NCBI GenBank assembly: GCA_043228905.1
Contig: JBHGNT010000017.1
Coordinates: 10,540,001 to 10,604,000 of the forward strand
From: Azolla caroliniana
Lineage: Eukaryota; Plantae; Polypodiophyta
Direction: 5' to 3'
Length of the DNA: 64,000 nucleotides
Position numbers and translations under genes: made by a program. Under the pieces are notes generated by a model that searched no databases, was not told the DNA's origin, and was given only the letters and a program-made list of their open reading frames with translations. Shown one piece after another: positions 8,649 to 50,900 of this stretch (its first letter is position 1; the number at the start of each line of letters is the position of its first letter).

Positions 8649-8658
8649 AACTCCCCCT

Positions 8659-9771: not shown

Positions 9772-9773
9772 CA

Positions 9774-9811
9774 TGGCACGCCCGTGGGACAGTACCTTGT
9801 ACGTCGAACCC
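9774..9811 (-). promoter_or_regulatory. tRNA-Arg(UCU)-like 3'-end copy (antisense PBS) replacing the PPT of E
   Basis: The plus strand reads LTR|CA TGGCACGCCCGTGGGAC AGTACCTTGTACG TCGAACCC. Confidence 0.7.
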
Positions 9812-9823
9812 TGCTCGGCCCCT

Positions 9824-12763: not shown

Positions 12764-12829
12764 GTCCGTTCATACCTCGATTTTTAATGATTTTTTTTTT
12801 TTTTTTTTTCTAAATGACGGTATGTGGTC

Positions 12830-15800
12830 TTACGCATCCGTAGGTCCCTTCGGACCCTTACCGTTTTCCTTACGGTTTGCCGTGTCTTCCTTTGCCTCTG
12901 CTACGGGTTCCCCGTCGTCTTTTTCTTCCAGCCGTACCGTTCCCGGTATAGTGCCGGTGAGTTGCATAAACGGGTTACTTGGCATTGGTCCTTTATAGGG
13001 CTTTAGTCTAAATCCGTTCACCCACTTGCCTAGTACTTCACCGGCAAGTGTCCCTATCTGATAGGACCCGTTGTATTCCCGTGTCAGCCAATACGGGCCT
13101 GTCCATCTGAACCGGAGTTTACCCGGCATCTTGCCCATCCTTGTTTGGAATACTAGCACCGGCTTTCCGATTTCGAACATCTTTTCATTACCTTTCCGGT
13201 GACGGTCAACGAACGCTTTCCGTCGTTGTTGCTCCAGTTCCATGTGGAGGATGCTAGCCAGCCGTTGCTCCTCCAGTTCGCATAGTGCTGCTAGCCGCAT
13301 TTCCTCCGACTTCTTTTCATTCAGCCGTTCCCGTAGTTGGATCCGTAAGCTTGGTACCTGAAATTCCACCGGCATGACCGCTTCTAAACCGAATGCTAAC
13401 CGGAACGGCGTTGTCCGGATACTTGTTTTGTATGCCGTTCTGTACGCCCATAGCGCGCTATGGAGCTTTGTATCCCAGTCCGTCCGGTTTTCGTTGACGA
13501 TTTTGCGGAGAATGTTCTGCAGCGTTTTGTTGGTGGACTCTGCTAACCCGTTCGCTTGTGGGTAGTACGGTGTGCTCCGTTTATGGACCACGGCATAGAA
13601 CGTTGTTAAGCTTTCCACTACCTGGCCGAGGAAGTGCCCTCCTTGGTCGCTGATCAATTCAATCGGTCATCCATATCGGCACCAAATGTTCTCGTACAGG
13701 AATTTTGCTGTGGATGCCGCGGTATTGTCTCTCAAGGCCTTAGCTTCCACCCATTTAGTGCAATAATCCGTTGCCACGATGACATAACGATTACCCGTTC
13801 TCATTGCCGGTGGCTTGAACGGTCCGACAAAATCCAACCCCCACTTCTGGAATGGCTCTAGTGGAAGTACCGGTTGGTGTGGCATCCGTGCTTGCTCCGT
13901 AGGCTGGCCCATTCGTTGGCATAGGTCACATTCCTTAGCATACTTGACGGCGTCTTTTAACGTCGTGGGCCACCATAAGCCGCTCTGCCATACTTTCCTT
14001 GCCGTCGCTTCCCCGGCATAGTGTCCTCCGGCAACCCCACAGTGTGCTTCCCGTAAGATTACTTCTTTCTCGTCACTACGGACTGCCCGTCTCCATATTC
14101 CATCTGCTCCTTTGTGGTAGAGAGTGTCCCGTAACAGACAGAAATTGCGGCTCTGCACCGCCAGTCGTTTCCTCTCGTCCCGGTTCATTTCCTCTGGTGG
14201 CAGGCCCGTGCTTAGGAACTGGTGCATGTTTGTCAGCCACCTATCTTCTGATGCCACCGTGTCGTCCGCTGCCGTTTCCGGGGTGATACGGAATAACTCC
14301 GCGTCCGGGAATTCATCCGCTACCCCGTCGCCTGGTTCTCCGGACTCTAACCGGCTCAGGTAGTCTGCTACGGCATGCTGGATACCGGGCCGGTGGAAGA
14401 TCTCGAATTCGAACTCCTGCAACAGCAAGGTCCAACGGGCCAACTTACCGGTCAGGGACGCCTTGGACACTAAGTACAGGAGCGCCGAGTGATCCACATG
14501 AAAGGAGAACTTCCTTCCCAATAGGTAATGACGAAACTTTGTTACACTGTAGATCATGCCCAGGGCCTCCCGTTCCGTAGTCGAATAGTTCTTCTCCGCT
14601 TGGGACAGCTTCCGGCTGGCGTAATATACCGGCCGGTACCATTTAGGCTCCGTAAGTTGCATTAAGGCGCTGCCGATAGCGATGTCGGACGCGTCAACGA
14701 ACACGTGAAATTCCTTGCTCCAATCCGGAGGCTGCACGACGGGTGCTTGCGACAAGAGTACCTTCAGGGCATTGTATGCCTTATCCTCCGTATCCGTCCA
14801 TTGGAACGGTGTCCGATGTACCGCGATGTGTAATGGTGTAGCCAAGTCAGCCAAGTGACGGAGCATCCGGCTGTGCCACCGGATCTGTCCTAAGAATCGG
14901 CTTAGTGCTTTGGCTGTTTTCGGCGCCGGTGCCCCTAGTATGGCGTTTACTTTATCCGGGTCGACCGCAATGCCCTCCTTACTTACAATGTGTCCCAGCA
15001 ATATTCCACTTGAAACTCCAAAGATGCATTTTGCTGGGTTTAAGCTTAGCCGGTATAACCTACACTTTTCAAGGCATAACCGTAGGTGCTGCAAATGGTC
15101 TTTTCCCCGGCTATAGACTGCAAAATCATCCAGGAAAACTTGCATGAAGGCAGGAATGTATTCGCCGAAGATCTCCATGATGATTCGCTGGAACGTTGCT
15201 GGTGCCGTTTTTAGGCCAAACATCATGACTTCGGCCACAAACACCCCCCATTCGGTGACGAACGCTGTCTTCTCCTGGTCGTCCGGGTGCATCCGGATTT
15301 GATTGTAACCGCTGAACCCGTCTAAAAAACTATAGACTTCATGACCGGCGACGGCATCCAGTACTCCGTCCGTGAACGGAAGAGGGAATGCATCCGTAAT
15401 TGTGGCGGCATTTAGTTTCCTGTAATCTACACACATGCGGATTTTACCGTTCTTCTTGGGAACGACGACGATGGGGCTCAGCCACGTCGCTTTCTTTACC
15501 GGCCGGATGAAGCCCACTCTTAGGAGTTTGTCGATTTCCTCCTTCACTTTGGCGGCGTAGTTGGGGTTCATTCGGTAACGTCGTTGCGCCACTGGTTTCG
15601 CGTCCTTGCCTAAGTGGATCTGATGCTGATATAATTGAGGGTCCAGCCCTCGCATGTCTTCGTATGACCAGGCGAATACGTCGCGAAACTCCGTGAGAAG
15701 TTTGATCATCGCCGCTTTATCTTCCGGCTTCATTTCTTTGGCGATGTGTACCGGCTTTGATTCGTCCTTGCTTCCTAGGTTCACTTCGTCGAGCTGGGAT

Positions 15801-18700
15801 GCCTTTACCCGTTGGGAAACGGCCATTTCCCGTTCCAACGCTTCCTGTGCTTGCCGTAATTCCCGAATCGCATCTTTGTCTGGTTCGGCTTCGGTTTTGT
15901 CCCGCTGCGGCAAGTATGGCGCTACGGCTTCAGCCACGTCAATCTCGAAGAGTGGTACGATCTTCGGATGTTCCTCCAAGTACTGGGCTTCTTCGTCGTC
16001 TGCCAACCCTTCAAGCATGTTCACGCATTCCGCATATAGCGGTGTGCATTCCTTACCGTTGCTCGTCCGTGGTTGTGTCAGAACCTGGACCTTGGCTTTT
16101 CCGCGCTGGAAGGTAATCATATTTTTCCGCCAATTTTGCTTGATGTGTGCTGTTTTCAACCATGGTCTGCCCAGCAACAGTGGGTACGCGCCTTGCGCCT
16201 GTAGCTGCAGCACTACAGCCGAGATGTGAAATGTGTGGCCTCCTATGGTGACTTCCAATTTCCGTATTAAGCCCGTCGGCCGTACAGAGCTCGTATCCGC
16301 CATCCATAGCCAGAACGGACATGGCTCCCATTCATGTATACCCAAGGCATCACACGTGCGGAGGCTTATTACGTTCACCCCGGAACCTCCATCGATTACT
16401 GTGCCGGGAAGTTCGTGCCCTTTGACAATAGCTGTAATTACCGGACTACTAGTGTCCACCACCGTCGGTCCCTCCTCCGGATTCGAGAAGAGGACTGGTG
16501 CCGGTGAGGCTATACCGTCTGTCGTGCCCGTTTTTAGTCCTTCCGTAAATCGCGGCACGAGCTGCAAGAGTCTTCCTAACGGCAACGTGATCTGACATTC
16601 TTGCAGTGCTTGCCATGTCTCGTTTTCTGGGTGGCTACCGCCGGCACTCCCTATGGTATTCGCCTTTTGCCGTTCCGCATCCGCGACGTTCCTTTCATTG
16701 GCTTCCTTCACCCATTCCGTCGCCTGTTTTCGTACGGCCTCTTGTGTTTCCCACTCTTTGGCCATGCCTTTCGACCGTGTGGTTACTTGCTGTACATCCG
16801 TCACTTCCGGAACCACCATATTAACTGCTGGTCGTTTCTCGTAGCTCTTTACCGGGCACTGGTTACTGTAGTGGCCTTCCTGCCTGCAGTAGTAGCAGTA
16901 CTCTTTACGGGTATTGCTGGATTCAGCATTGCTGGTAGCCGGAGTCGTTCCCGTAGTGAGTGGTGCGTTCTGTGCCGGTTGGCTCCTTGGGGTTCCATGT
17001 TCCGGGTCCCTAGGGTGACCACCTTTCTTGAAATTACGTTTCTTATTATTCTTATTTTTATTTCGGTAGTCCGGTCGTGGTGGATCGTAAAATCGGCCGT
17101 AGTCCTCTTGGTGCCTTCGGTAACCAGGGGAATGGTCTCTGTCGTATTGCTCGTGTCGCCTGTTGGGCTCCCGATAACGGTCCGATCGCTCATACCGGTC
17201 GTAGTTATCATGCCGATTCCCGTACTGGCCCTCATTCTCTTGTTTGTCGCCGTACCGGACATCCTGTGCCGGTCGGTACCGGTTCATTCTTTGCCAACGA
17301 CCTTCATCTTCGTCTCGGCTGTTTCCTGGCTCGATCCGTCGGACGGGTGGTGCTTGTCGGTTTAACAGGTTATACTCGCACCGGTCCGTTGTATGACTCT
17401 TGGATTGACAAATCACACACTGGGTTCGCATGGTGCACTCCACTGCCGAGTGTCCGGCATTCAAGCAGATTGTGCATTGAATTGCCTGCCGGAACCGGAG
17501 ATCTTCCTCGGTGGGTAACGCCCGTTGCAGTGTTCCCAGTGTAAGCCATGAGCTTGACTTTTCCATTTCTCTGACCCGGTCAATGACCTGGTCGATGGTG
17601 CATCCTCGAAAGTCGATCACCGTACACACCGTGCGTAACGGTTCCCGGAGTGCGTTTAAAAATATCGTCCGTAATTCCTCCTCCGGGGGTGCACGGGCAA
17701 GCTGGCTATGCATTCGTTGGAAACGGATGACGAATTGGGGAATGCTTTCCCCTGCCTCCTGTCGGATCGTATAAAACAGGCCCACCATTGTCGTCTGGTC
17801 GACCTCCTTGTGGAAAAAATGCAAGAATTTTGCTTTTAATTCTGCAAAGGTTGTGATGGTCGCCGGGTCCTGCGTCCGCCGCCATCGTGTCGCTGGTCCC
17901 TCCAACGTGACTCCGAATTCCGCTATCTTCGAGCGTTCTTCTTCCTCCGGTGTCATTCGCTGGGACGTGTGATTTGCTTCCCATGTCTGCTCGAAGTCAT
18001 GAACATGCGCTTCCGCGTCCGGATCATCGCGATACTTTGAGTATTGGAACGGCATGTCGTCGTCCAGTATTAGGCCGCGGTTTAGTGGCGTTTGTTGATA
18101 TCTTTCCGGTTTTTTCTCCGGTTCCACTTCCGGTTCTTGTGCCGGTGCTTTTTCTGGTTCCTTTTCCGGTTCTTCTTCCAGTTCCTTCACCGGCTCTTCT
18201 TCCGGTACTTTTGCCGGCTCTTTCGTTGGTGTCGGTGGCTTTGCTTCTTCCACTTCCGGTGTTGGTGGGTTGACGGCTTCCGTTTGCGGTTCCGGATAGC
18301 CCTGGTTGAGCGGTTCCGGTTCTGGAGTCGGCACGGTATCCGACCCGTCGTCCTCCGGGTCGCCGGGGGTATCGTTGCTGCTCCGGTAGTTCGTGTGCAC
18401 GCTGTATCCCGCTTCGGAATCCGATTCGTAGGCTGAAAAGGCTTCTGCCTCGTTTTCTCCGCTTGCCAGTGCCTCCAGGAGGCGTTCGGTTTCCCGGAGA
18501 CTACTTAGACTGCTTCCGTCGTCCTGGTCGCAAGTTTGCCGTAACCGGAGAGATTCCTCCGCGACTCTCCGGATCTCGTTGGAGAACGAACGATCCGAGC
18601 GAATTTCCTGCGCTGCTTGCTGGAAAGTCTCACGCCGTCTTTGCCGTTCGGCGAGGCGTCGAGCTCGGTCTGTAACCAAGTCGTGCGTTGGTCTAGTCAT
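12830..18700 (-). CDS. gag-pol: Gag-Pol of E (Gag, 3 CCHC knuckles, PR, RT, RNase H, INT) with one in-frame TGA at 13667-13669
   Basis: PR VIDGGS; [18 protein letters not shown] and FLDD; RNase H DAS, ERE and DH; INT HHCC, WGLDF, SDQG, NGLAE and GPY. ORFs 13667-18700 and 12830-13657 share one frame. Confidence 0.95.
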
Positions 18701-18733
18701 CCATTACCGTCGTTCGCTGCGAGAAAGCAGGAA

Positions 18734-18745
18734 TCGTGGTCGCCA
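18734..18745 (-). promoter_or_regulatory. PBS of E, tRNA-Arg(UCG) type
   Basis: TGGCGACCACGA lies 6 nt after the 5' LTR; the same sequence is in B. Confidence 0.8.
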
Positions 18746-18751
18746 AAACTG

Positions 18752-19169
18752 TGTTATTCGCTTAGCCGGACAAGGCCTAACACAAGGTGTCACGGAGACA
18801 CTTCACCAAAGGGTGATTACGGCATAGGATTAAGATTCAACGATTACACCGACTTACGTAGGTTACACGATTAGAATGCTTTGGTTAATTACACGCGTAA
18901 GATATAACAGTAATTACAGAACGGAAATCAAGACAGAAGTATAAACATCATAAGCTCTATTAATTATCCGCTGCGATTACAATGGGGTCCGGGCCTTTAA
19001 ATAGGTTTCCGGCCCGTAGTACAAAACGGTGCCTCTCGCACCTATTCGGGATCCGTCCGGATCTGGAACGGCATACCGTTTCCAGTCCGTCTGTCCACAC
19101 TATGCTTATTACAACCATACTAATTAATTCCTTCACTCCGTATTTTGGACTCCTTGCCGGCCGGTAACA
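18752..19169 (-). repeat. 5' LTR of E
   Basis: Direct repeat of 9354-9771. Confidence 0.97.
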
Positions 19170-19174
19170 CTTCT

Positions 19175-22100
19175 CTCCTTTTGTCTTCGGGCTTTGATTG
19201 CCGGACAACTTGCAGTTTGCCGGAAGTGTCGATCCGACCGGTTTTGCATCTGACATGTTGAACCGGTGAAGCACCTTTGTCACATACTTCTCCTGTGACA
19301 GCCATAGTTGCTTCACTGACCGGTCCCGAATGATGTGCATCCCCAACATCTGTCTTGCCGGACCCAAGTCCTTCATTGAGAAGGTCCGGTTGAGAGCCTT
19401 CTTCAGCATCCGTATTTTTCCTTGGTCTCGTCCGACGATCAACATGTCATCCACGTACAGAAGGAGTATCAGGAAGTCCCCTCCTTCGAACTTCTTCACA
19501 AACACGCAGTGATCGGCCTGCGTCTTGTGGTACCCTTGATCGGTCATGAAGGAGTCGAACTTCCGATACCATTGCCGGGGAGCCTGCTTCAGTCCGTATA
19601 GGCTCTTCTTCAACCGGCATACCAAGTGCTCCTTCCCTTTCTCCACAAATCCTTCCGGTTGCTGCATGTAGATCTCCTCTTCGAGGTCGCCGTGAAGGAA
19701 TGCCGTCTTCACGTCCAGCTGCTCTACCTCGAGATCCATGCTTGCCGCTATACTCAGCACCGTCCGGATGGAGGTCATCTTTACTACCGGGGCGAATATT
19801 TCGTCGAAGTCCACGCCCTTCTTCTGCTGGAACCCCTTCACCACGATCCTGGATTTGTATCTCGGGGGGTTGCCGGCATCTCCCGGTTTCAACTTGAATA
19901 CCCACTTGTTTCGGAGTGCCCGCTTTCCTTTTGGCAGCTCCACCAATTCGTACGTATGGTTCTCATGCAGGGAATCCATCTCATCCTGCATGGCATTTAA
20001 CCATTTTCGGTTGTGGGTTTCAACCTTCGCTTCTTCGAAGCTTTCGGCTCCCCCTCATCGGTCAGCAGGACATGCTCTGCATCCGGAAATCTCCGGGGCG
20101 CCCTTCTCTCTCTGAGAGGATATCTACGTCTTCGGGCTTCGGTAATCGGTTCCTCCATTTGCTCTTCATCCGAATCCGATTCGGGGTCTTGACCGGTTCC
20201 GGTCTCAGCTTCCTCTACTTCTTCTTCTGCCGGTTCGGTATCCTCACCGTAACCGGCTGGTTCCTCGAGTGCTAACCGGTCTCTTGCCGGTTGGGTCTGC
20301 TCATTGTAGAGTCTATCCTTACCGGTCGACTCGGAGTTCATTATCTTCTCCTCCGACTCCCAGTCGGCGAGCGTATTGTCCTCCATGAAGATAATATCTC
20401 GACTCCGGAATACCTTCTTGTCGACCGGGTCCCACACTCGGTAGCCGAACTCATCGTCACCGTAACCGAGGAATATGCATGGCCGGGTCTTTGGATCTAG
20501 CTTTCCTCTCCGGTCCTTTGCTACATGCACGTACGCGAGACACCCGAACACCCTCAGATGCCGGTAGGACACTTCCTTACCGGTCCATACTCTCTGTGGC
20601 GTGTCTCCGTCCAAGGGTACTGAGGGTGATCTGTTTATCACATATGTCGCCGTCGACAGTGCCTCAGCCCAAAACTTCTTGGATAGTTTTGCATGCGCTA
20701 GCATACTCCGGACCCTCTCCATTATGGTCCGGTTCATCCTCTCGGCTAGTCCGTTTAGTTCCGGCGTCTTCGGCACGGTAAATTCGAGCCGGATTCCCTT
20801 CGAGCGGCAGTACTCCTCGAACTGCCCCCGGTACTCACCTCCGTTATCTGCTCGAACCGCCTTCAGCTTCCGGCCGGTTTCTCTTTCCACTCTCGCGTGG
20901 AGCTCTTTGAAGACGGATAACACCTGATCCTTTGTCTTCAGCGGTGTGGCCCACAGCTTCCGGCTGTGGTCATCTATGAACGTCACGAAGTACTGCGCTC
21001 CGGCATGTGACTTCGTGTCTACTTGACAGACATCCGTATGCACCAACTCCAGTGGTGCATTACGTCTCATCGGTGGCCTTGGTCGGAAGGAGGTCCGGTT
21101 CTGTTTACCGGCCAGACAATCAGTGCACTTCTCTAAATGCACGTTCTTCACTGGGATGAGGTTGTCGTCTGCAAGCCTCTTCATCCCCTTCTCACTCATG
21201 TGACACAGCCTCTTGTGCCACAGCTCACCGGCAGTGTCGGAAGCCACGTTCACTTCTTCCGGACATAACCGGGTATTCATCAGGTACAGTGTGTTTACCT
21301 TCCGGGCCCGAGCCACAATCAGGCTCCCTTTGCTGAACTTCATAACACCGTTCCGGATGCTACCCGTGTAGCCTTCATCATCTAGCCTACCGGCTAATAT
21401 CAAGTTCAGACGAACTTCCGGAACGTGTCGGACATTTTTCAACAGCAGCTTGCATCCGGTTGGTGTTGTCAGCCACACGTCTCCTATGCCGACAATTCGG
21501 CATGTTCCTTCATTCCCCATCCGGACACAGCCGTGATCACTGACTGAGTAGGATGAGAAGCATTTCCGGTCCGGGGTAAGGTGGAACGACGCTCCGGAGT
21601 CTACCACCCAGGTCATCTCATCGCCGGCATGGTTTATCTCACTCTCCTCGGTGATGAGCATCAACTCCTCTTCACTTGCCGCAATTGCCGTCGTTCCCTT
21701 CCGGTCTGGCCCCCTCCGGTCTTTACCGTTCCAGTCTGTACCGTTCCGGTCTGTACCGTTCCGGTTCGGGGTTTGCTTCGAATCGGTACCGTCGGTTTCC
21801 TTGTCTTTACGGAAATGCCGACAGTTCTTTTGGAAGTGTCCTGGCTTGCCGCAATAGAAGCAAGTAGGCCTCCCCCTTGACTTTGATCGTGTCCCCGACT
21901 TCTCCCGGTTCAGGGGACTACGGTTTCTCTGTCTTCCGCATTCCGATTCGGTAAGGAGCGCTTTGGAGTCGGAGCTCGTATCTTTGTCTTTCCGACGAGC
22001 CTCCTCATCTAGCAAGCTCGACTTTACTCTTGCTAGGGATAGCCGTTTTCCTTCCGGCCCGGCGTTGCCCAAAGTAACAACCAACGTCTCCCAGCTATCC

Positions 22101-22555
22101 GGGAGGGAACCGAGCAGGAGTAGCGCTAGGACCTCATCGGCAAGAGGTACTTCCAATGACGTTGCCTGGTGAATCAGCCCCTGGAAGGCATTCATATGCT
22201 CCGCCATGCTGTGGCCATCTTGGTACCGGAGTCTTACAAGCTTCCGGAATACCGACGCCTGATTGACAGCATTTTTGTTTTGGAACATTGTGCCGATCTT
22301 CTCCCAGAGCTCATGAGCCTTACTCTCTTCATTGAAGTTGTTGTACAGGCTCATGTCGATGAAGCACCGTATGTACGCCGTTGTCTTCATGTGCATCACC
22401 TCCCATATCGCGGCGTCGATTTTGTCCGGTCTCTTGTCCCCGAACTGAACCGGCAGCCAGAGGTCTTTTACCACGAGCATGTCCCTCATCTTCGACTTCC
22501 ACACTGAATAGTTGGAGCCGGTGAGCTTGAACATGCCGCCAAACGATTCGTCCAT
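19175..22555 (-). pseudogene. gag-pol: Copia C gag-PR-INT-RT, frameshift near 20045, interrupted by E
   Basis: CFYCGKPGHFQKNC, WVVDSGAS, WHKRLCH, VHTD, ADNGGEY, NGLAER, QLDVKTAFLHG, LYVDD. Close relative of D. Confidence 0.95.
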
Positions 22556-22583
22556 TTTCTGTGTCGATCTCGCTCTGATACCA

Positions 22584-23172
22584 CGGCAGCCCACAAGCTG
22601 CAAACTGTCACTGTGCACAGGAGGTATACGTGGAAAACCCCAAAATAGGGGAAAAAATCACGGCAGCCCACAAGCTGCAAACTGTCACTATGCAGAAATA
22701 TACAACAGTGAGATCACTGAGGCAACGACCTCGTGCTCACAGATCTTCGCCACAGGCGGCGGTTACAACAGAGGCAACGACCTCGTCTCTCTCTCTCCCT
22801 CTCTCTCTCTCTGTACAGTTACGCGCTCTGATTTCTTCTTGCACCAACAAGGAAGAATAATAATCACACACATCATACTAAAGGTTTGCCCTAAGTCATA
22901 TTTATACTAATATGACTTTTCGGCTATTTACAAATGTAGCCTTGATGGGCTTCATCCGGCTCTCCGCAGTCGGGCCTACACCATCCGACTCTCCGCAGTC
23001 GGGTACTCCTCATCCGGCTTCCCGCAGTCGGGCCTACACCATCCGACTCTCCGCAGTCGGGTACTCCTCATCCGGTTCATACTGTTTCGGCTGAGGCCTG
23101 TCGGCCTCGGCCGAGTTGGTTCGTCGGCACTGTTCTTCTCCCTTCCCATCCGGAGGGACCTGTCTACCAACA
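22584..23172 (-). repeat. 5' LTR of Copia C (U5 end replaced by a 29-bp filler)
   Basis: 22613-23172 matches 8038-8648; 22584-22612 copies 22661-22689. Confidence 0.9.
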
Positions 23173-26103
23173 GGTTCCTCATCACTAAGGTTGACTGTTG
23201 CCGTCTTTCGTGCTTTTTCTTCCTGGAGCCGGGACCGCTCATAGCTTTCAAACTGGATTTGAGCCTCCAGCCGATCATCGTCTAGTTGAGCTACGAACTG
23301 TCGGACCTGCACCAATTGTTCATCCGCCAGGGCTGTGAAATCTTGCACCAGCTCATCCCTAATGGTGGTGAAGTCCTCCGAGGTTAGCATATAGCAGTCG
23401 TTGCCCTCCTTTCGCCGATTTTCAACGTCCGCCCTAAGCAATTGGAGTTCCGCGGTATTCTGCGCCCATTTTGCCCACCAACGCACAGAGCTGTCATCAA
23501 TCAAGCTTTTCGTTTTAGTGAGCCATGACCGGAGGATGCACTGGATCCGTTCGGCTCCCATCTGTGATTTATTTTCTGCGGCTTGTCTCTCTTCCTTCAA
23601 CTACTTGATGATCCGAACCGTGTCCGCCTCCTGCTCCCTATAATGCGACAATTGAGTTTGATAGGTTGTTTGCAACCTCTGTAGTACCATTGTCGCTCTT
23701 TCCTTGTCTTCATGGTTCTATTTGTGGAGCTCCATCCGGCCATTCGCCGCTTCCTCCAATAGCCTGAAACTTTCCGCTCGTTCTTCGGCGAGTGCCGTTG
23801 TGGCCTTATCAACCTCTTGCCAGAGCTCGGCCATCCGTTGCTGATGCTCCGTCTCCAGCTGCTTGTAGTCCCGATGCAGATGATCGAAATCATCAGTCTT
23901 CTACTTCAGCCTTTGGTTTATCTAACAGCGCACGCGGTCCTCCCGGTTCTTCTGTTGCCGGAACTCTTCCTTCAGCCGCTCAATTTCCATTTCCGCCATC
24001 CGTCGCAGCTTGTCTTTTTCCTGCAACACTTTCTCTTTTTCCTCCTTCAACCGGTCCTAAGCATGATGTCCTTTACGCAGGTTTTCCTCTGCCTGGCGAA
24101 GGTTCTCAACAGTCTTTCTTTAATTCTTCTTCGACCGCCTTCTTCAAGTCGCGTTCGCGGCTCCGTAATGCTTCTTGTGCAGCTAGCTCATCTCGTAATT
24201 CCGCAAGATCTTGGGCTTGCGCCGCCTCTTTCTCCGGGACCGTTTGTGTCTCCGGAGTCTTATTCTACTGTACATCAACCGGAGTCACCGGTGCTTGGAC
24301 CTGCGTTGCGGTTAAGGCCATTTTGGCCATATCTCCTGTGATCCGATCCAAGTTCCAGGCACCGGATCCTTGACCAGGCCCGTCTCCAGTTCATCGGTTG
24401 TGACGAGCAACCGTTCCGTTTGCGCTCTTTCCTCCGCCTCTATGCATCCGACTACTCCGGCAATTTGGTCTCCTATACCGGATCCTTGACCGGGCCCGTC
24501 TCCAGTTCATCGGTTGTGACGAGCAACCGTTCCGTTTGCGCTCTTTCCTCCGCCTCTATGCATCCGACTACTCCGGCAATTTGGTCTCCTATCCACTGGA
24601 GCCATTGGCTGCCGGTGCACTGTTGTTGCGCTTGCACGGAGAATTGGCTCATGGGTTCACTTGCCGGTGGCTGGTCCCGCCTTTCTGCGTTGAGCTGCAC
24701 TTCTGGTTCTGCCAGCTGACCACTTTGTCATTTCGGCTCTGAGTGTGTTTCGTCTGGTCATCTCTTGTCTGCTTGTTCTTCGCTGGCTGGGGCGGTTGGC
24801 CTTTGTATCTCCGGCTGTTGGGTGACGGGGCTTGCCGGTGCTGCCTATTGTGCCGGAACTTCTGTGACCGGTTCCATCCGAACCGGTTCCGGTGCCTCCC
24901 TTGGCGTGGGTTGCTCAGCGTGAGTTGTGGGTGCTCCATCCTTCTGTGGGTCCGAACGTTTCCTGACAGATTCTACGGTGCTCTTCATTGGCCGCCGCTG
25001 GAGGTGCTCCGTGGGTTCTTCCTCCATTTCTTCCGCCTAAGTCCCGGCATTCATTCTTGCCGCCAAGGTGTCCGTTTCCTATTGCGCCGGTCGGTGGAGT
25101 GGGCTCTTCAAGGCCCGTGCCGGTGTCTTCTCGTGCGTGTCCGTCGGTCGCTTCCGGCTGTCGCGCTCCTTTGCCGCCTTCTCTGCTTCGGCAGTCTTCC
25201 CCTTAGTGGCCTTGGAAGCCAACAGTTGTTGCCGTTTCGAAGCAAGTTTCGGGGTGCCGTCCGTTGTTCTTCCCCGCTTCTTGGTTTGGACGGGCTCGAC
25301 CGGTGGCACCAACAGGGTGAGCCATTGTGTCACTGCATGCCATATTTTCCGTCCTTCCTTGTCTTCCTTTCCCCTTACTATATCAATGGCCGTACAAAGC
25401 CCGTCGGCGATCAACACCGGCCAATCTTCTTTGACCCCTTCGTACGTTGCGATGATCAAGCCTGCTTGGTTCTGAGGCATGACGGGGGGTCGAGGGTACA
25501 CGTGGCCGAACTCGTGAAACACTCGGGCAATTTCTCGGAATAGCATATCTTCGCCGCCCTGTGTCCTATAGCCCTTGCTAGCTAGAGAGTACTCACCGAA
25601 ATATTTGATGAGTTGCTCGGGGGTAGGATTGTCGATTGTGTAGATACCGCCCTCCGGAAGGCCTATTAACGCACGGATCGCTTCCTCCGTGTCGATTTCT
25701 TTTATAATCTTCTCGGCCTCTTTGTGTGGCGCTGCCTCCATGATCGTTAAAAAACCCTCCAGACCGTGCTGCCGTAACCATTTCTTGGCGGCTTCAGACA
25801 ATGTTTGGCAGTCCATCTCTGCGTCGAGGTCGGAGAGCGTCGGAGAGGTTTGATGGTGGGGAGAATGTGAGAGAGAAAGTTCTGAGGGAGGGGGGGAGGG
25901 GGTTCTCTGTGCGCGAGCTCTCTGCGATGTATCTTCACCCGTCGCTCTGCGTCTGTTCTCCTTGGTTCGCGATAGGAGAAGGTCTCAATGCGTGGGGGTT
26001 TTTCTCTCTGCATCTTGGCGCCTTTTTCGAGCCTCCGCATGTGCAAGTCGTGTACTATAATAGCATTGCGTGCCATGTGGCGGTGGTTTAATGTCCTATT
26101 CAT
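23173..26103 (-). pseudogene. B extra ORF, frameshifted; C-terminus at ~7690-7924
   Basis: LSEAAKKWLRQHGLEGFL, SQWLQWIGDQ and VRWWAKWAQNTAELQLLRADVE match the E ORF. A ~116-bp tandem duplication lies at 24360-24593. Confidence 0.9.
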
Positions 26104-29200: not shown

Positions 29201-30690
29201 GGACGCTTTTACGCGCTGGGATACGGCCATCTCCCTTTCCAGTGCCTCCTGCGCATGCCGTAACTCCCGGATTGCTTCTTTGGTAATGCTCGTTGGAGGG
29301 CTCCCATTGTTAGCCAAGAGCTCATTTTCTCCATCTCTCGAACCCGGTCGATGACTTGGTCGACGGTGCTTGTCCAAAAGTCAATGACCGTGCATATTGT
29401 TCGTAGAGTTTCCCGGAGCGCGGCTAAAGATATAGCCCGCGTTTCTTCCTCCGGAGGTGCGCGGGTAAGCTGATTGCGCATCCGTTGAAACCGGATGAAA
29501 AACTGTGGGATGCTCTCGCCGGGGTCCTACCGAATTGTGTAAAATAAGCCCACAATTTCTCGTTGATCCACCTCCTTCTGGAGCTCCCATTGTTAGCCAA
29601 GAGCTCATTTTCTCCATCTCTCGAACCCGGTCGATGACTTGGTCGACGGTGCTTGTCCAAAAGTCAATGACCGTGCATATTGTTCGTAGAGTTTCCCGGA
29701 GCGCGGCTAAAAATATAGCCCGCGTTTCTTCCTCCGGAGGTGCGCGGGTAAGCTGATTGCGCATCCGTTGAAACCGGATGAAAAACTGTGGGATGCTCTC
29801 GCCGGGGTCCTACCGAATTGTGTAAAATAAGCCCACAATTTCTCGTTGATCCACCTCCTTCTGGAAGAAGTGCAAGAATTTGTCTTTCAGGTCCGCAAAG
29901 GTGGTGATGGTGCTGCGATCCTGTGTTTGTTGCCATCTGGCGGCCGGTCCTTCTAATGTCACGTCGAATTCGGCTATCTTAGATCGTTCCTCTTCTGCCG
30001 CGGTTAACCGTTGTGACACATGGTTTGCTTCCCATGTTTGTTCAAATGCGTGAACATGAGCCTCCGCGTCCAGGTCATCCCGATACTTGGAGTATTGGAA
30101 CGGCATATCGTCGTCTAGTGTCGGTATGCGGGCTGGCGGTGTCGGTGGTCTTTCCTGCTGTTCCGCCGGCGTCTGAGGTCTTTGCTAGTTTTCCTTTGGT
30201 GTTTCCGGCTCGACTTCCGGTGTTGGAGGTTTTTGCCGGTGTACTTCCGTCTCCGGAGGTTGCTCCACGATGAGTGCCGGAGGTTCTTGGTCTGCCAACT
30301 CTGGTTCCGGTGTCGGTAAAGTATCTGACTCCTCGTCCTCCGGTCCTCTTGGGGTGTCGTTACTGCTGCGATAGTTTGTATGCACGCTGTAACCCCCTTC
30401 CAAATCCGATTCTAGTGCTGAGAATGCTTCGGATTCGCCTTCTCTTCCGGCCAAGGCCTGGAGAAGGGTTTCCACTTCCCGGAGGCTGCTTAAGCTGCTT
30501 CCTTCGTCCGGGTAAGCGTTTTGTTGCAGACGGAGCGACTCCTCCGCCACTTTCTGGATCACTTTGGAAAATGATCGATCCATTCGGATTTCTTCCGTTG
30601 CTTGCTGAAAGCCTCTCGCCGCCGTCTCCGTTCAGCAAGTCTTCGTGCTCTCTCCGTAACCGGGTCGTCTGTTGGCCTAGTCATCCATTC
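26254..30690 (-). pseudogene. gag-pol: B gag-pol, with NC/PR deleted, a ~283-bp tandem duplication, stops and frameshifts
   Basis: Gag 29810-30583, RT 27950-29155 and INT 26460-27539 are all highly similar to E. Gag joins directly to the pre-RT linker near 29281. Confidence 0.92.
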
Positions 30691-30739
30691 CTGCCGTTGT
30701 TCACTGCGATAATGCAGGAATCGTGGTCGCCAAAAACTG

Positions 30740-31192
30740 TGTTATTGCTAGGGCCGGACAACAGCCTAACACAGGGTGTCCACTCAAGACATGTCACCAA
30801 AGGGTGGTACGGCAGAATGACTTAGGGCCCAACGCTTAATTAGACCTTAATTGATTACTTAGCAATCCATAATTAACACGAGTAAGATATGACAATAATT
30901 GCAAAACTATAATCAACACTTGAAGATTAAGACCATAAGCTTTATTAATTATCCGCTATTGATTACATTGTAACCGGGCCTTTATATAGGTCTCCGGTGC
31001 GAAATACAAAACGGTGCCAAACGACACCTTTACGGAATCGTTCCGGATCCGGATCGGCATACTGATTCCGGTCCGTCTGTCCACATCATAATATGTATAT
31101 ATTAAGACTACTAATTCCAACAGTTCCCGAATAACTATTCCTTTCACACTCTGGTTTGGACCTCCTTTAGCCTTCTTTGCCGGCAGGTAACA
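30740..31192 (-). repeat. 5' LTR of B
   Basis: Direct repeat of 7180-7632, adjacent to the PBS at 30721-30732. Confidence 0.95.
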
Positions 31193-31453
31193 GAAGCCAA
31201 AATGGATCAACCGGGAGAGACCGTACCGAAACAGCCAGCAGAAGTCGAACGAGAGCAACCGGAAGTAGAAAGAGCAAAGCTGAGAGTAGATGAAGCCGAA
31301 GAAGAGGCAACTACCGGAGCAGGAAGGCAGCATCCACAACAGCAAGAGCCAGAGCAGCAGCAGCAAGAGCAAGAGCGGCAAAGCGAGGAACCCCTCGAAC
31401 CTCTTGACCAGAGCATTTTGGTAATATTTGATGAAGAATAGTGGAGCTAACCC

Positions 31454-31493
31454 GTGGGTTCGACGTACAATGTACTATCCCACGGGCGTGCCA
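31454..31493 (+). promoter_or_regulatory. tRNA-Arg(UCU)-like 3'-end copy at the PPT position of A
   Basis: GTGGGTTCGA-CGTACAATGTACT-ATCCCACGGGCGTGCCA-TG|TGGTGACC. Confidence 0.7.
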
Positions 31494-31495
31494 TG

Positions 31496-31951
31496 TGGTG
31501 ACCAGTGGCGGCCAAGTATGGAAGGAGGAAGAGGCGAGCTAGTTCCTAGAAATATAATTAAATAACTAAGAAATATGTTAAGAACGGACAGATCCAGAAG
31601 AGGTATGTTGATCCGGATCCAAACCGATTCATAGCCTGTTGTCGGTTAGGCACCGTCTGTAGCACTAACCGGATGCTTATAAAAGGGATCTGGATATCAT
31701 TGTGTAAACGACGAAACATTAATATAAGAGTGTGTTATTATTGTCAATCTATTATCCTGATCTTTATTCCCTCCTGTGTTTAATGTATTGATCTTACGCG
31801 TGTAACACTGTGTGTTGTGAATCGGATCTCAACCAGACGTTAACCGGTTGAAGCATAATCAGAGTCGGAAATCCTTACCGCAACCACCCCTTTGGTGAAG
31901 TGATCTGGAAGGACACCCTGTGTTAGTGGCTAGTCCGGCCCAGGAGTAACA
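31496..31951 (+). repeat. 3' LTR of A
   Basis: TGGTGACC...GAGTAACA; matches 2669-3114. Confidence 0.9.
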
Positions 31952-32820: not shown

Positions 32821-35378
32821 TGTTGAGTGGACAAGCTCAACCAGATCCAGATCGGCTGAACAAACCAGAACCGAATCGGAGTTCGGAACAAAGAACCGGA
32901 TCGGTGTCCGAATGGTATCCAGAACTAGGAGTGGGATCAGATTGTAACCAATAGGCCATTAGAGGCCTACGAATCTAGCCTCGAACGTAGGCATATTTTT
33001 AAGAATCAGTATTAGTCGTATGAGCATTGAAGTACTTGTCAGTACTTTTGTCAGTCCTTTTAAGGACTTGTATAAAATTGCTCACTGAGCACATTGTATG
33101 TACAAAGCATTATTATTTTGAATTAAATTTATGTTGTTCTGCTTTCTCTGTCTCTACAGTGTATTCAAGCTCTCTATTAAACCTTCATTCTGAGTATTGT
33201 TGTTATCTGGACTAGCCGGTTTTGTCCAAACTTACGCACAACTTTTACATGGTATACGAGCGCGAGGGTTGAGAACCTCCACAGCCGACAAGCATTTTCT
33301 GAAGACAAACCCTAACAACCGGTAAAGAATAGATAGAAGAAGAAGATGGACAGAAAAGCTTAACCGGAGCAACTATGTGTACTAGTCATAAAAAATGCAT
33401 CAATACCTATTGGGGCACGGATATCGGAGCTACGTGGAAGGAGAGAATGTAGTTGCGCCAGATTCAGCACACAAGGACTTCCCGATATGGGAGCAATGAG
33501 CGAGTAGAGTGTTGTGTTGCCACGCATCCTGTGTGCACAACCAGATTCTCAGCTACATCAGGGATGCAAAAACGCCGAAAGAGGCCTGGGAAAATCTCTA
33601 GAACCTTTTCGCTGCAAGTACCACGGCTCAGAAGTTGCAGCTTCGGCAAGAGCTCAATAGTATTCGGCAATGGGACATGTCAATCACCGACTACACCAAG
33701 ATCAAGGAGATCTGTAACATGCTCGGGTCCATCAACGAGATGGTGGACGAGGACAAGATGGTCCAGATCAGCCTCGATGGTCTAGTACACCGATACAAGC
33801 CAATCCAGACGGCAATTTGCACCGGGAAAAGCTACCGTCCTTCTTCAACCTGTAATCAATGCTCATGGTCGAAGAAAACCATGCAAGTGGGACAAGCACC
33901 ACTCAATCGGACAGCCGGATGTTGTACACGGAGGCGGGATCAGCCCTATGAGTGTGGAGGATGAGGTGGGTTGGCACACAATAGCAACGGTCGGCAAGAG
34001 CAGAACTGGAGGCACAGAGATAGTGCTAACAACAATTCCGGACCCCCCACAAGCAGGGGCAGTCAAAGCAGCGCCGGAGACCGGCAATCAAAGACCGACA
34101 AAGAATGCTGGAATTGTGGCAAGAAAGGCCACTGGGAGAGCGACCACTGGAAGAAGCGCGTTGATTCAGATAGAGCCAGATTCAGCAAGACCGGACAAGA
34201 GAACTCACAAAGTTCACACTACGCTGAAGGATCAGAAGGATCTAGAACCGATAAGACTGGAAAAGGGTCAGCCTTTGTGATGAAACACAAGGGGAACTCA
34301 ATGAAGAAGACCATTTTCGAATCAAAGGAAGTGTGGTACGTTGATTCCGCAGCATCAAACCACATGACGAACCACGAAGAAAGGTTCTCATACTTGGAGA
34401 AACCAGAGCAATCGGGAGTTGTCGAAACCGGAGACAACACTCCTCACCCGATAGTGCATGTAAGAGAAGTTCCCCTGAGTCATGTTGGACAACAAGGGAC
34501 ACTTATGAACGTGCTTCACATCCCGACAACCAGGAAGAACCTGGTGTCAGTAGGGCAGATCGTCAACCAGGGGACGCAGGTGCAGTATACGCACCTTGAG
34601 TGCTTCATTGAGGAAGAGGGCCATATCATTGTGCAAAGGCACCGGGACCGGAGGATGTTCACCCTGAACACCAACGATGTAGGCGTCTTGTTCACAAAAG
34701 GACAGAAAGTCGAGTCAGATATCGACTTGTGGGACAAGTGGATCGGCCACGTTAACTATGAGAGCCCTCAAGACCCACAATCCAATCTGGTTGTTTTCGG
34801 ATTGCTGAAATTCAGTGGCTGGAATACCAACATTTGCGAAACTTGCGAACTCAGGAAGCAACACTAGCTTCCATTCCCAACCAAAAGAAACCGGAGCCGT
34901 AACAAGCTCGACTTAATCCATTCAGATGTATGGGGACCAACACAGAACCTTTGCCTTGGTAGGAGCTGATACTTCATCGATGACTACAATCGACACACAT
35001 GGATCTATCTCATAGAGAAGAAAAGCGAAGTCTTCGACTATTTCCGGAACCTCCAAAGTCTTGTCGAACGAGAAACAGAGAAGAAGATCAAGTGTCTACG
35101 GTCGGATGGCGGAAAACAATACTTTTCCGGCCAATTCAACAGTTATTTGCAACAAATGGGAATTTGGAGAGAATTCAGTTGCAGATACACACCGGAACCA
35201 AATGGTGTGGCCGAAAGGAAGAATCGTTGATTGTGGAGGCGCTACAGGAAATGCTCGAGGAGAATAACATGCCCAAGTTCTACTGGGCCGAAACGGAACG
35301 GTCGTCTACATCCAAAACCGGATCGGGGATAAGGTGTCACCACATGAGCTATATTTCGAACGGAAGCCAAATTTAAGA
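32821..35378 (+). mobile_element. Truncated Copia H: 5' LTR 32821-33249, decayed iMet PBS, degenerate gag-PR-partial INT
   Basis: TGTTGAG...TTTTACA|TGGTATACGAGC. Motifs CWNCGKKGHW, WYVDSAASNHM and SDGG. The 3' half is missing. Confidence 0.85.
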
Positions 35379-37539: not shown

Positions 37540-37939
37540 AAACATAATTAAGTCTAATATTAAAATTAAAAACGAGATTAGAAACATAGTTAAAAATTAA
37601 AAAGACGGGTAAGGGGAGATGGGGGGATTAACATCCTAATTAAAAACAAGATTAAAACTTAATTAGAAGGGAGAGAGAGAGAGAGAAAGATACATAATTA
37701 ATTAATTAATTAATTTAGATAGAGCATAAAGATATGTGTTGGAAAGCCCTCTATTAGAGCTTCGTAACAAGATATAGCAAGTTAAATTTGGTGGTTTGTG
37801 TGAGAACCAGCGATTAAAATAAGGTAGTGTGTTGTTGACATCCACATACTCAACACACATTGCGGGTCTTCTATTGTATTCATCATCTTCAACCTCTTCA
37901 ATAAGGTGAGTTCCGGTTGTCTTTCTTGTTCATGGAAAA

Positions 37940-39478
37940 TTGTTTTTATCTCGGATCACTGTCACATCTGGAATAATGGATATAAACATGACTCTCTCTC
38001 AAATTGTGGGGGACATTGATATGGAAACAATTGATCCAAAAAAGAGTAATGTGATGGTTGAATGTAATCGTGAAAGGAAAGACATTGGAAGCTCTAAGAG
38101 GTTTAAGGGCATTGAGGAAATTAATGAGAGAAAAGCGACATATGCCGAAGTAATACATGTAGATGCGGTTGACAAGGATCATTGTAATTGGGATAATTTA
38201 TGGGGAATTGCCAATACCTTATTGTTTGATATTGTGGAAGAAAATGAAAATGCAACGAAAGAATGCAATGATTTGGATGTTGATGCTAAGGCAGTGTTGC
38301 AATCTTTTGATGTATTCCATGATCGTGCGGTTATATTGTGTTTTATTGGGAAACTCCCATACATTAATTGGATTAAACAGTGGTTGAATAGAATTGTGTC
38401 ACCAAATTGTGTTGAAAATATATATGCAGGACCACAAGGGTTTTATGATGTAGTGTTTTGTTCACTGGAACATCGAAGTGCATTGTTGGCTAAAGTTCCG
38501 GTGTTTTTTGATAAACGATTGATGCATGTAATGCAATGGTCCTCCGTTGTGGACTATCAGGCTTTGTTGAAACAAGAATGCTCTGTTTGGGTAATAGTGG
38601 ATTGTAAGCATGCATTTTTATGGCCACTTTTACCAGAGTTGATGAGTCAAATGGGTAAAGTGTTGGTATCTCCACATGCAAATGCTACAAATAAGTACAG
38701 ATTTTGTGTTATGGGATACAAACCATAAGAGGCCAGGATGGGTACGTATGAACACACCTGGAATGAAAAGACTTTGTTTTAAATTGAAGTGGGAGACATT
38801 TGCAGGTCACTGTTTTGGATGTGGTGAATGCAGTCACTTTATGGCAGAATGTCATCGTCATTGACCTTCAACTATAGAGGTTCCTAATGAAGGGAATGGT
38901 AAGGATGAAGTTGGGAGAGATGTTGGTGTGTCAGATATGGTGGTTGTTATGGATGAAGGAACATCATCTAGAGCAGGCTATAAAGAGGTTTCACTTCAAG
39001 GTTTGGGCCTTAAGAATAAGGGCACTCAATCTATGGATATGGAAAAACAAAATTTGGTGGTTATAGATAAAGGGAAAATTTGTTGGATAGAACTAATAAT
39101 GATGTTGTTGAAAAGGATTGGTATCAGGTTAAGGGCAAGTCAAAGGGAAGATCAATGAATATGCAATGTAATAGTTTGCCCACTACTCATGAGACTACTT
39201 GGAAAAGTAATTCAAGAACTAGGGAGGGTCCTCGAAAAGGTCCTTGGCAAAGACAGTTTAGGGATAAGGGATTACCCCTTCACCTTCAATTTGATTCATT
39301 GGGACGGGTTGTTAATTCATCGAATTCTCGAGGTTTCCGTCAAGCGGGAGAACCTAAACAAAAGAGTTCGATAAACAACACTAAGGATGTGGTGCATGAA
39401 AATCCATATGCAGCATTGGAACATGCTTTGACTAGTTTCATGACATCAGTTGCTCTAAAGGAGCAAATGCACCCATAA
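37940..39478 (+). pseudogene. LINE (L1-type) ORF1, frameshifted
   Basis: RRM-like region (AVILCFIG...GFYDVVF) and zinc knuckle CFGCGECSHFMAEC, directly upstream of ORF2. Confidence 0.75.
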
Positions 39479-47904: not shown

Positions 47905-50900
47905 TGTTGCAAAACAACGCTCGGTCACAAACCGAGGAATAGGATCAACTCACAGAAAAACGGGAAATACAAAGTGCACGAGGACAATAGAGAGAGGAGT
48001 ACACAGGATGTTTTACGTGGAAAACCCTAAATGGGAAAAACCACGGGAGTCCTTGAACTCCAACTATCACTATAAACAGAGGTGTACAATGGTGAAGCTA
48101 CAAGGCAACGACCTTGAGCTCACTGTCTTCGCCACAGGCGGCGGTGATACACAGAGATGTCGACCTCTTCGTTTCTCTCCCTCTCTCTCTCGGCTGCTCT
48201 CACTTTGCTCTCTCAGCAGAAAACATAAAAATGAGCAACAACATTTAAACTGTTTGCCCTAAGTCATATTTATACACATATGACTTTCGGGCTATTTACA
48301 AATATAGCCTCAAGGGCTCTTGGCAAACATATTCACAAATATGTCCCCGCATCCGGATCTCTCTCCGGGTACATTCGTCATCCGGCTCCGTAACCGGGGT
48401 CTTCAGCATCCGGCTCCGTAGTCGGGGTCTTCATCATCCGGCTCCGTAGCCGGAGTCTTCAGCATCCGGCTCCGTAGTCGGGGTCTTCAGCATCCGGCTC
48501 CGTAACCGGGGTCTTCATCATCCGGCTCCGTAGCCGGGGTATTCATCATCCGATTCCCGGACATCCGACCATCCCATCCGGAGGGACCGTAATCCCAACA
48601 AACTCCCCCTTCACTTCGGCATGGGATGTCTCTCCAATCCGATCCTTTTCCGGCATGCTTCCAGCTTGTCGGGTGTGAGTACCTTGGTCAGCATATCCGA
48701 CCCGTTCTCGTCCGTGTGGATCTTCGTCAGCATGAACTCCTTGTCTTCTATCCTTTCCCGGATCCAGTGGTATCTACGCTGGATGTGCTTCGTCCGGGAG
48801 TGATAGGCCGCATTCTTCGCAAGGTGGATGGCACTCTGACTGTCGCAGTAGAGTCGGTACTCCTCCTGCCGGATACCGAGCTCTCTAATGAAGTCCTTCA
48901 TCCATATTATTTCCTTGCCGGCTTCAACAGCCGCCATGTACTCCGCCTCCGTGGTTGACAACGCAACCGTCTTCTGCAGCCTCGACTGCCACGAAACAGC
49001 TCCCCCTGCATACGTCATCACATACCCTGATGTGGACCGGCTGGTATCTGCATCAGCCGACATATCCGAATCGGTAAAGCCGTCGAGTTCGGGCTTACCG
49101 GAGCCGAATCGGAGGCACACGTTTGCCGTGCCCTTCAGGTATCGGAGTATCCACTTGACCGCGTTCCAGTGCTCTTTGCCGGGATTGCTCATGTACCGGC
49201 TCACCACTCCGACTGCGTATCCTATGTCCGGTCTTGTACACACCATTGCGTACATCAAGCTTCCGACGGCAGAGGCATATGGTACTTTCATCATGTCCTC
49301 CTTCTCAGCCTTTGTCTTGGGGCTTTGCTTGCTGGACAACTTGCAGTTTCCCGGGAGGGTTGACCCGACCGGTCTTGCTTCCGACATGTTGAACCGGTGA
49401 AGCACCTTTGTCACGTACTTGTCCTGTGACAGCCACAACTGCTTCTTCTTCCGGTTCCGGATGATGTGCATCCCTAGTATTTGCCTCGCCGGACCCAGGT
49501 CCTTCATTGAGAAAGTTCGGTGAAGCGCTTTCTTCAGCATCCGTATCTTGGCCTGGTCCCGTCCGACGATCAACATGTCGTCCACGTACAGGAGGAGTAT
49601 TAGAAAGTCTCCTCCTTCGAACTTCTTCACAAACACGCAGTGATCGGACTGCGTTTTGTGGTAGCCTTCGTCGGTCATGAAAGAGTCGAACTTCCGGTAC
49701 CATTGCCGGGGAGCCTGCTTCAGTCCGTAAAGGCTCTTCTTCAACAGGCATACCAGGTGCTCCTTCCCTTTCTTCTCGAATCCTTCCGGTTGCTGCATGT
49801 AGATCTCTTCTTCGAGGTCACCGTGAAGGAATGCCGTCTTCACGTCCATCTGTTCTACCTCGAGGTCCACGCTTGCCGCTATGCTCAGCACCGTCCGGAT
49901 GGAGGTCATCTTCACTACCGGGGCAAATATCTCGTCGAAGTCGACGCCCTTCTTCTGCTGGAACCCCTTCACTACGATCCTGGCTTTGTATCTCGGGGGG
50001 TTTCCGACATCTCCCGGTTTCAGCTTGAACACCCACTTGTTTCGAAGTGCCCGCTTTCCTTTCGGCAACTCCACAAGTTCATATGTGTGGTTCTCATGCA
50101 GGGAATCCATCTCCTCCTGCATGGCACTTAACCACCTGCGGCTATGGGTGTCAAGTTTTGCTTCTTCAAAGGTCTCCGGCTCCCCCTCGTCGGTTAGCAG
50201 CACGTGCTCTGGTTCCGGAAATCTCCGGGGGGCCCTTCTCTCTCTTAGAGGATATCTCCGTTCCGGAGCTTCGGTAACCGGCTCCTCCGTTTCCTCTTCA
50301 TCCGAATCCATTTCGGGATCGGGGCCGGTTCTGGTATCAGTTTCATCTTCCTCGGCCGGTTCTGTTTCTTCACCGTCTTCGGCCGGATCCTCGAGTGCTA
50401 ACCGGTCCCTTGCCGGTCGGGACTGCTCTTCGTAGAGTTGATCCTCACCGGTCGACTTGGAGCTCTTCATCTTCTTCTCCGACTCCCAGTCGGCGAGTGT
50501 CTTGTCCTCCATGAAGATGATATCTCGACTCCTGAATATCTTCTTGTCGACCGGGTCCCATACTCGGTAGCCGAACTCGTCGTCGCCGTAACCGAGGAAT
50601 ATGCATGGCCGGGTCTTTGGATCTAACTTTCCTCTCCGGTCCTTTGCCACATGCACGTATGCGAGACACTCGAACACCTTCAGATGCCGGTAGGACACTT
50701 CCTTACCGGTCCACACTTTCTGCAGCGTGTCTCCGTCCAAAGGTACTGAGGGTGATCTATTTATCACATACGTCGCCGTCGACATTGCCTCAGCCCAAAA
50801 TCCCTTGGGTAATTTCGCATGTGCTAGCATACTCCGGACCCTCTCCATTATGGTCCGGTTCATTCTCTCGGCCAGCCCGTTCAGTTCCGGCGTCTTCGGC

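Follow-up and report, generated by a model that had tools for sequence, protein, structure and literature searches.

How does a long terminal repeat (LTR) retrotransposon start its second DNA strand when the polypurine tract (PPT) is absent from its usual place and a piece of tRNA stands there instead? The question is raised by a 64,000-nucleotide stretch of the Azolla caroliniana genome (GCA_043228905.1, contig JBHGNT010000017.1, positions 10,540,001 to 10,604,000; here denoted the window), in which a Ty3/gypsy element, denoted E, carries a split tRNA-like motif directly before its 3' LTR. Two further elements of the window, A and B, carry the same motif. The features concerned are:

31454-31463, forward strand: upstream tRNA block of element E, GTGGGTTCGA, corresponding to tRNA positions 49-58 (5' strand of the T-stem plus T-loop)
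31464-31476, forward strand: spacer of 13 nucleotides (nt) with a 4-bp hairpin (31465-68 with 31472-75), marked by covariation and paired variants
31477-31483, forward strand: ATCCCAC, tRNA positions 59-65
31484-31493, forward strand: GGGCGTGCCA, tRNA positions 67-76 with the CCA end; one C of positions 65/66 is absent before this block
31494-31495, forward strand: TG, the 2-nt gap between CCA and the 3' LTR
31496-31951, forward strand: 3' LTR of element E, 89.7% identical to the LTR at 2669-3114, with its CA end at 31951
9774-9813, reverse strand: element A motif, separated by 2 nt from the 3' LTR (9354-9771)
7635-7674, reverse strand: element B motif, separated by 2 nt from the 3' LTR (7180-7632)

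Re-reading the coordinates in the sequence placed the three tRNA blocks and the 13-nt spacer where an initial annotation of this DNA had put them, with the spacer sequences that it had quoted for A, E and B. Its span of 31454-31495 was slightly too long, the tRNA match ending at 31493 and the last two bases being the gap before the LTR. The GT that it saw ahead of the upstream block is present in E and absent from the other two window copies. GGGTTCGA is conserved without being invariant: relatives show TACGA, TCCGA, TCTGA and two one-base insertions. The reassembled arm is indeed one base short at the stem junction, and the missing base is one C of positions 65/66; that extra C is present in the 5' primer binding site (PBS) of distant families (TGGCACGCCYGG) and in an uninterrupted tRNA gene, L089. 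Block 67-76 matches tRNA-Arg genes once uninterrupted.

Polarity was judged against the gag-pol strand, which defines the sense direction. All three window motifs have gag-pol sense and stand at the usual place of the PPT, with 2 nt between each of them and the 3' LTR of its Ty3/gypsy element. The motif has the tRNA's own polarity on this strand and is complementary to the tRNA on the minus strand only. Its pattern occurs three times in the 64-kb window against 0.01 expected, and none of 100 shuffles reached three. The gap between CCA and the LTR measures 2 nt in all 11 analysed copies, always with G as its second base. Extra bases between CCA and the LTR start (31494) were seen in a few public contigs of runs X4 and X14, and the gap may vary in some copies. 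A PPT sought before the 3' LTR was found in none of the 11 copies: no purine tract abuts the LTR, purines make up 47% of the last 15 nt, and within 60 nt their longest run is 3-7. As a control, both copia elements of the window carry a G-rich tract 2 nt before the LTR.

Related loci were fetched by integrase alignment, not by the motif, and the best 80 of 215 were kept. Seventeen of them reach at least 2.5 kb beyond the integrase: 11 show the motif and an LTR start, two end within the motif (L011, L013), three have no visible 3' LTR (L033, L045, L051) and one has an LTR without the motif (L064). The motif is present in 13 of the 14 integrase-selected loci that reach the junction, and the constant spacer length, which the initial annotation had noted in three subfamilies, holds in all 13 of these related loci, with an insert of 13 nt plus position 59. 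Identity among the 11 copies is 0.26 upstream of the motif, 0.68 at positions 49-55, 0.94 in CGA, 0.65 in the spacer, 0.95 at 59-65 and 0.94 at 67-76, and it falls to 0.40 past the first LTR bases. The tRNA sequence is kept over 27 nt among elements whose integrases are 69-92% identical. The integrase tree shows a clade of 18 rows with 99/99 support, apart from the named plant rows. In public contigs depth is concentrated at about 31454-31497 in four of four runs, with loose ends on both sides and no row with an indel within the motif in those runs; at the homologous edge in element A, runs from three coded organisms contain 78, 83 and 51 diverging contigs. A covariance model, built from 14 of its own 16 matches, found these 16 in 377,065 bases, all of them known copies at this position; with filters off, nothing else had E below 1 in the window or L064. 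The initial annotation had accepted that its reading would fall if spacer length, stem and sequence were no better conserved than background; in this larger alignment they are better conserved. The motif is a real, conserved and structurally constrained feature.

We discarded the loose motif matches of L035 and L042, which are found about 900 nt past the integrase, a distance similar to that of a loose match inside the extra open reading frame (ORF) of L055, and which have no covariance-model match. ARAGORN detected no tRNA in the window and 27 of the 80 loci, Rfam gave no match at 31200-31700, and viral contigs contained neither a motif match nor a relative.

The spacer forms a conserved stem, as the initial annotation had proposed, and pairing is kept through double changes (T-A/G-C/C-G and A-T/G-C). 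We aligned 14 copies, leaving out L004 and L056, whose motifs are identical to the L003 and L055 motifs. Both middle pairs are intact in all 14 copies, the one as U-A (6), G-C (5) or C-G (3) and the other as A-U (7) or G-C (7). The inner-stem covariation score, which the tool warns is inflated by kinship of the copies, was 0.615 against 0.199 +/- 0.053 in shuffled alignments (0 of 500 as high) and at most 0.214 in slid controls. Stem types fall into five groups on the integrase tree, and about four double changes are needed by hand count. L038 and L046 keep the stem in a shifted register. Within the public contigs the partner variants 31467 A>G and 31473 T>C, not directly phased, occur at depths of 12.4/12.4, 3.77/3.77, 11.3/11.3 and 872/854 in the four runs. 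The outer GTGGG/CCCAC stem behaves differently: none of its five pairs shows a double change, and pairs are lost in A, B and L046, the pattern expected were its letters held by an unchanging partner. An RNAalifold consensus fold has 11 pairs and adds GAC/GTC, with one C-G to A-U change in L011/L013. Single-strand folds were not exceptional against shuffles (z of -1.8 to +0.6 for DNA and -1.5 to +0.3 for RNA).

The spacer-replaced pattern matches real tRNA genes at 23 prokaryotic or viral loci, where ARAGORN called 21 tRNA-Arg (19 TCG, 2 TCT), one tRNA-Asp and one nothing. Separately, at L094:300-374, in a Saccharibacteria metagenome-assembled genome, ARAGORN reported a tRNA-Asp with an unusual ATC anticodon beside an unassignable tRNA. 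The plant partner we take to be tRNA-Arg(UCU), and the last 28 nt of L089, a bacterial tRNA-Arg(UCU), served as its stand-in. The initial annotation had asked for the tRNA/minus-strand duplex to be computed. Cofolding predicted a three-way junction with the hairpin out between positions 59 and 58 at 11 of 11 sites under both parameter sets, so that the split falls at the 58/59 boundary throughout. At all 11 sites the predicted tRNA duplex gains more from the upstream block than from shuffled versions of it (0-4 of 200 as good), and in the predicted minus-strand fold the 10 nt complementary to the CCA end are single-stranded, as a toehold, in four of five cases.

Clade-wide substitutions within positions 51-58 occur only at position 55 (T, C or A), while T54 is conserved in 14 of 14 copies and C56 in 13 of 14. 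Four of eight changes fall at position 55, with a post hoc chance of about 0.03 (events hand-counted), and the base of the 5' PBS pentamer that matches position 55 also varies (CGAAC to CGGAC and AGGAC). The host tRNA presumably carries pseudouridine at 55 and 1-methyladenosine at 58 (m1A58), and the split at 58/59 may be placed by m1A58, which its position fits. In the available sections of the sources, pseudouridine stabilises pairs with A, G, U and C, as measured in RNA duplexes (PMC3950712), and the primer tRNA of human immunodeficiency virus (HIV) has pseudouridine at 55 and an m1A58 that blocks Watson-Crick pairing and stops reverse transcriptase (RT) (PMC13191261).

The other end of the elements carries a second tRNA site with a hairpin of its own:

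18712-18745, reverse strand: element A, 5' PBS 6 nt past the 5' LTR (18752-19169), made up of 10 nt complementary to the tRNA, a linker, a 4-bp hairpin and CGAAC
30699-30732, reverse strand: element B, 5' PBS and its hairpin, 7 nt past the 5' LTR (30740-31192)
2669-3114, forward strand: 5' LTR of element E, truncated by a deletion that removed the LTR end and the PBS 10-mer

In A, B and related loci a 10-12-mer starting with TGG lies 4-7 nt past the LTR, against the fixed 2 nt at the 3' site, and the inner LTR junctions are both AACA-C. The ordinary PBS is followed by a conserved hairpin and CGAAC or a variant (A, B, E; L037:5510-5560, L038:1285-1335); in E these survive the deletion at about 3115-3140 on the forward strand. 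CGAAC is the complement of T-loop positions 53-57. Covariation of this hairpin is weaker than at the 3' site, with a double change in one pair (7 of 500 shuffles) and two one-sided changes that give G-U in the RNA sense. The PBS of L037/L055 is the complement of a tRNA-Arg 3' end, and in two of three subclades the 5' PBS addresses the same tRNA end as the 3' site. The A/B subclade (A, B, L001, L003, L004, L011) switched its 5' PBS, to an isoacceptor that we take to be Arg(UCG), yet kept the 3' site, which argues against pairing of the element's two ends. A literature search with the PBS 10-mer returned no retroelement among the titles.

Taken with the duplex models, these comparisons indicate that a host tRNA-Arg probably binds the minus-strand DNA at a two-part site and primes the plus strand. 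The new minus-strand DNA would fold so that the 10 nt complementary to the tRNA CCA end stay free as a toehold. The tRNA is predicted to pair through positions 76-59, with one bulged C, and then through 58-49; the 13-nt hairpin would be looped out at the boundary of the two paired parts, next to m1A58. RT may then extend the tRNA 3' end by 2 nt and on into U3, after which RNase H would remove the tRNA and integrase would trim the 2 nt. Such a site would be copied from the element RNA and never from the tRNA, so that the missing base and the insertion would persist; it may have originated as an inverted copy of the 5' PBS region. The initial annotation had offered a two-part tRNA-binding site or a folded tRNA-like element. 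The former is favoured here, read on minus-strand DNA, and the latter less so; a closed DNA hairpin with a free 10-nt toehold, opened by the tRNA, can combine the two pictures. For the clade we lean, somewhat more cautiously, towards priming of both strands with host tRNAs at two mirror-image hairpin-split sites, the second on DNA, shaped by modified bases (the split at m1A58, tolerance only opposite pseudouridine 55).

Several points weigh against tRNA priming at this site. The stand-in tRNA was found with a pattern built from the motif, so its match is partly by construction, and the energies were computed with RNA-RNA or DNA-DNA parameters that do not cover modified bases. Position 58 is always A, yet m1A58 cannot pair normally. 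Changes of G>A and T>C, the wobble direction, are in excess (8 or 9 against 1 by hand count, p 0.04-0.06), but the excess is weak, and the low T content of the sense strand (17%) confounds it. The GAC/GTC pairs of the RNAalifold fold are intramolecular, and the variable bases 53-56 lie in its bulge. Folding does not support a contact between the 5' PBS pentamer and the T-loop (one of five, no better than shuffles), and because of this the mirror-image architecture is argued from sequence conservation only. A single accession series supplied all 80 loci, which may represent one host group. Finally, the LTR of L064 is preceded by neither motif nor purine tract. At L064:4118-4815 the contig has low coverage and a broken extra ORF, and similarity to relatives stops 700 nt earlier; L064 may be a rearranged copy or a nested LTR.

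The main rival, which we regard as unlikely, makes the element's own RNA the plus-strand primer: a long irregular hairpin would escape RNase H and be cut after CCA, and the tRNA-like tail would prime in place of the PPT. The 2-nt gap suits a PPT-like primer equally well, the same gap being found at the copia tracts, and the 11-pair consensus fold, in which one pair beyond the 4-bp stem shows a compensatory change from C-G to A-U, accounts for the invariant G57-A58 and for the tolerated changes and insertions at 53-56. However, the outer stem of this fold does not covary and is partly lost in A and B, its RNA stability is no better than that of shuffles, T54 and C56 are conserved though unpaired in it, and it offers no reason for a tRNA sequence kept over 27 nt across such diverged integrases. 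Improbable, too, is a site that binds tRNA, tRNA fragments or tRNA-binding proteins for packaging, for an antisense transcript or as a silencing decoy while the plus strand starts otherwise. A 3' tRNA site of Drosophila Gypsy is dispensable for cDNA synthesis, as reported in the available part of PMC1635307, but that site is complementary to the tRNA in RNA, whereas the motif here has the tRNA's own sense, and in all 11 analysed copies, which lack a purine tract, only 2 nt separate its CCA from the LTR.

Pairing of the 3' motif with the element's own 5' PBS, for RNA circularisation or as a built-in minus-strand primer, would draw on the complementarity between PBS and motif CCA end in the L037/L055 and L025/L038 clades. 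It is largely refuted in the clade of A, B, L001, L003, L004 and L011, where the PBS changed with the motif unchanged and the motif 10-mer pairs with its own PBS at -7.8 kcal/mol against -20.9 kcal/mol for a perfect partner, and we hold it to be very improbable overall. Least credible of all is that the motif is an RNA polymerase III B-box or was left behind, as a neutral relic, by a single tRNA capture. GGTTCGA does resemble what we take to be the B-box consensus, but the spacer interrupts the box, the box core varies, the stem covaries, the flanks are 26% and 40% identical against 94-95% for the tRNA blocks, and neither ARAGORN nor Rfam finds an RNA gene.

Priming of the plus strand by a host tRNA can be set beside known systems, for which we refer to the sections of each source that were available. 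The elements share with PPT-primed Ty3 the domain order, LTRs, a tRNA-type PBS after the 5' LTR and a primer site just upstream of U3; in yeast Ty3 the plus strand is primed by a 12-nt purine RNA fragment (PMC5371799), whereas here tRNA-sense sequence takes the tract's place. Contacts split between acceptor stem and T arm are known from the bipartite PBS of Ty1 and Ty3, in Ty1 with a small internal loop between the two parts (PMC5371799), and from the two tRNA-Lys2 sites of Drosophila Gypsy (PMC1635307). In those elements it is the genomic RNA that is complementary to the tRNA, in both parts, and the sites prime the minus strand; the present motif is complementary on the minus strand only. T-arm pairing beyond the 18-nt PBS is shared with the primer activation signal and primer over-extension sequence of HIV-1, which however act at the 5' PBS of a virus with a normal PPT, and no looped-out 58/59 hairpin is mentioned in the sections available (PMC13191261).

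Among plant lineages, the elements resemble non-chromoviruses in having no chromodomain match, and OTA elements in their 5-bp target-site duplication (TSD) and extra ORF (PMC6317226). Arg primers occur in TatIII, Ogre and Retand, and the available part of that source mentions no PPT-less group for Athila, Tat/Ogre/Retand, Phygy or Selgy (PMC6317226). The additional archaeal RNase H that marks Tat/Ogre/Retand was absent, with no PF13456 or PF00075 match in P0001 or the full L011 polyprotein, so the elements are not Tat. Athila uses mainly Asp, Asn and Ala PBS types, in contrast to the tRNA-Arg PBS of L037/L055, and Phygy and Selgy have a 4-bp TSD, a Trp or Ala PBS and no extra ORF, unlike the 5-bp TSD and large extra ORF here (PMC6317226). 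Small-RNA-derived sequence within an LTR element is shared with Helenus, Ajax and Cassandra, which are terminal-repeat retrotransposons in miniature, but theirs lies inside the LTR as an RNA polymerase III promoter in non-autonomous elements that keep the PPT, whereas this motif lies outside the LTR of coding elements (PMC10886601). Ordinary PPTs are described in the available part of bioRxiv 10.1101/2022.12.06.519325. The open-access literature, to the exclusion of subscription journals, yielded no tRNA site replacing a PPT and no tRNA-primed plus strand, and the proposed replacement is most likely a new variant of Ty3/gypsy replication. If true, there is a different route by which RT and RNase H can set the left DNA end, and a second replication step would become sensitive to tRNA supply and to tRNA fragments. 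Annotation software that relies on a PPT could mistake the orientation of such elements. The hairpin covariation, the tolerance at position 55 and the switch of the 5' primer only are specific, cheap handles for mutational tests.

The window is a nest of plant retrotransposons, with A inside a copia element, that copia inside B, and B inside E. Further features of A and B are:

9354-9771 and 18752-19169, reverse strand: LTRs of element A, 99.8% identical, TSD AGAAG
7180-7632 and 30740-31192, reverse strand: LTRs of element B, 95.4% identical, TSD matching at 4/5
12830-18703, reverse strand: gag-pol of element A with Gag, zinc knuckle, RT, RNase H and integrase, one in-frame stop in the integrase
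9824-12769, reverse strand: extra ORF of element A, 981 amino acids (aa) stop to stop, ending about 10 nt before the motif

LTR pairs of the TG...CA type with a TSD, and the domain order Gag-(protease)-RT-RNase H-integrase, are those of Ty3/gypsy LTR retrotransposons; the TSD of E matches at 3/5 bases only. No Pfam match was obtained for the gag-pol protease, and a DGGS motif is present between Gag and RT. We also considered whether the site could be the PBS of an element in the opposite orientation. This was ruled out, since gag-pol, the extra ORF and the TATA-like boxes of the LTR run opposite to such an element and the PBS adjoins the other LTR. The closest relatives over the RT region are unnamed (79-92% identity), and the nearest named relatives, compared over the full region, stand at 42-47%, with Marchantia, Riccia and Adiantum among them. 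The 981-aa extra ORF matches no Pfam family; its residues 95-300 have only five unnamed relatives among proteins of similar length, and its acidic C-terminal end, which stops just before the motif, is alike in E and L038.

Elsewhere in the window, a copia element at 47905-53307 (reverse strand) has an uninterrupted ORF of 1374 aa, LTRs about 98.5% identical, the PBS TGGTATCAGAGC and a normal PPT; a relative of it at about 8038-23172 harbours element A. Element B contains near-perfect tandem duplications at 29300-29865 (283 bp) and 24361-24592 (116 bp). Fragments resembling long interspersed nuclear elements lie at 37910-38728 and 54820-56232 (a weak DUF4283 match; RT), and more gypsy/copia fragments at 3455-5788, 33965-34867 and 58772-61126.
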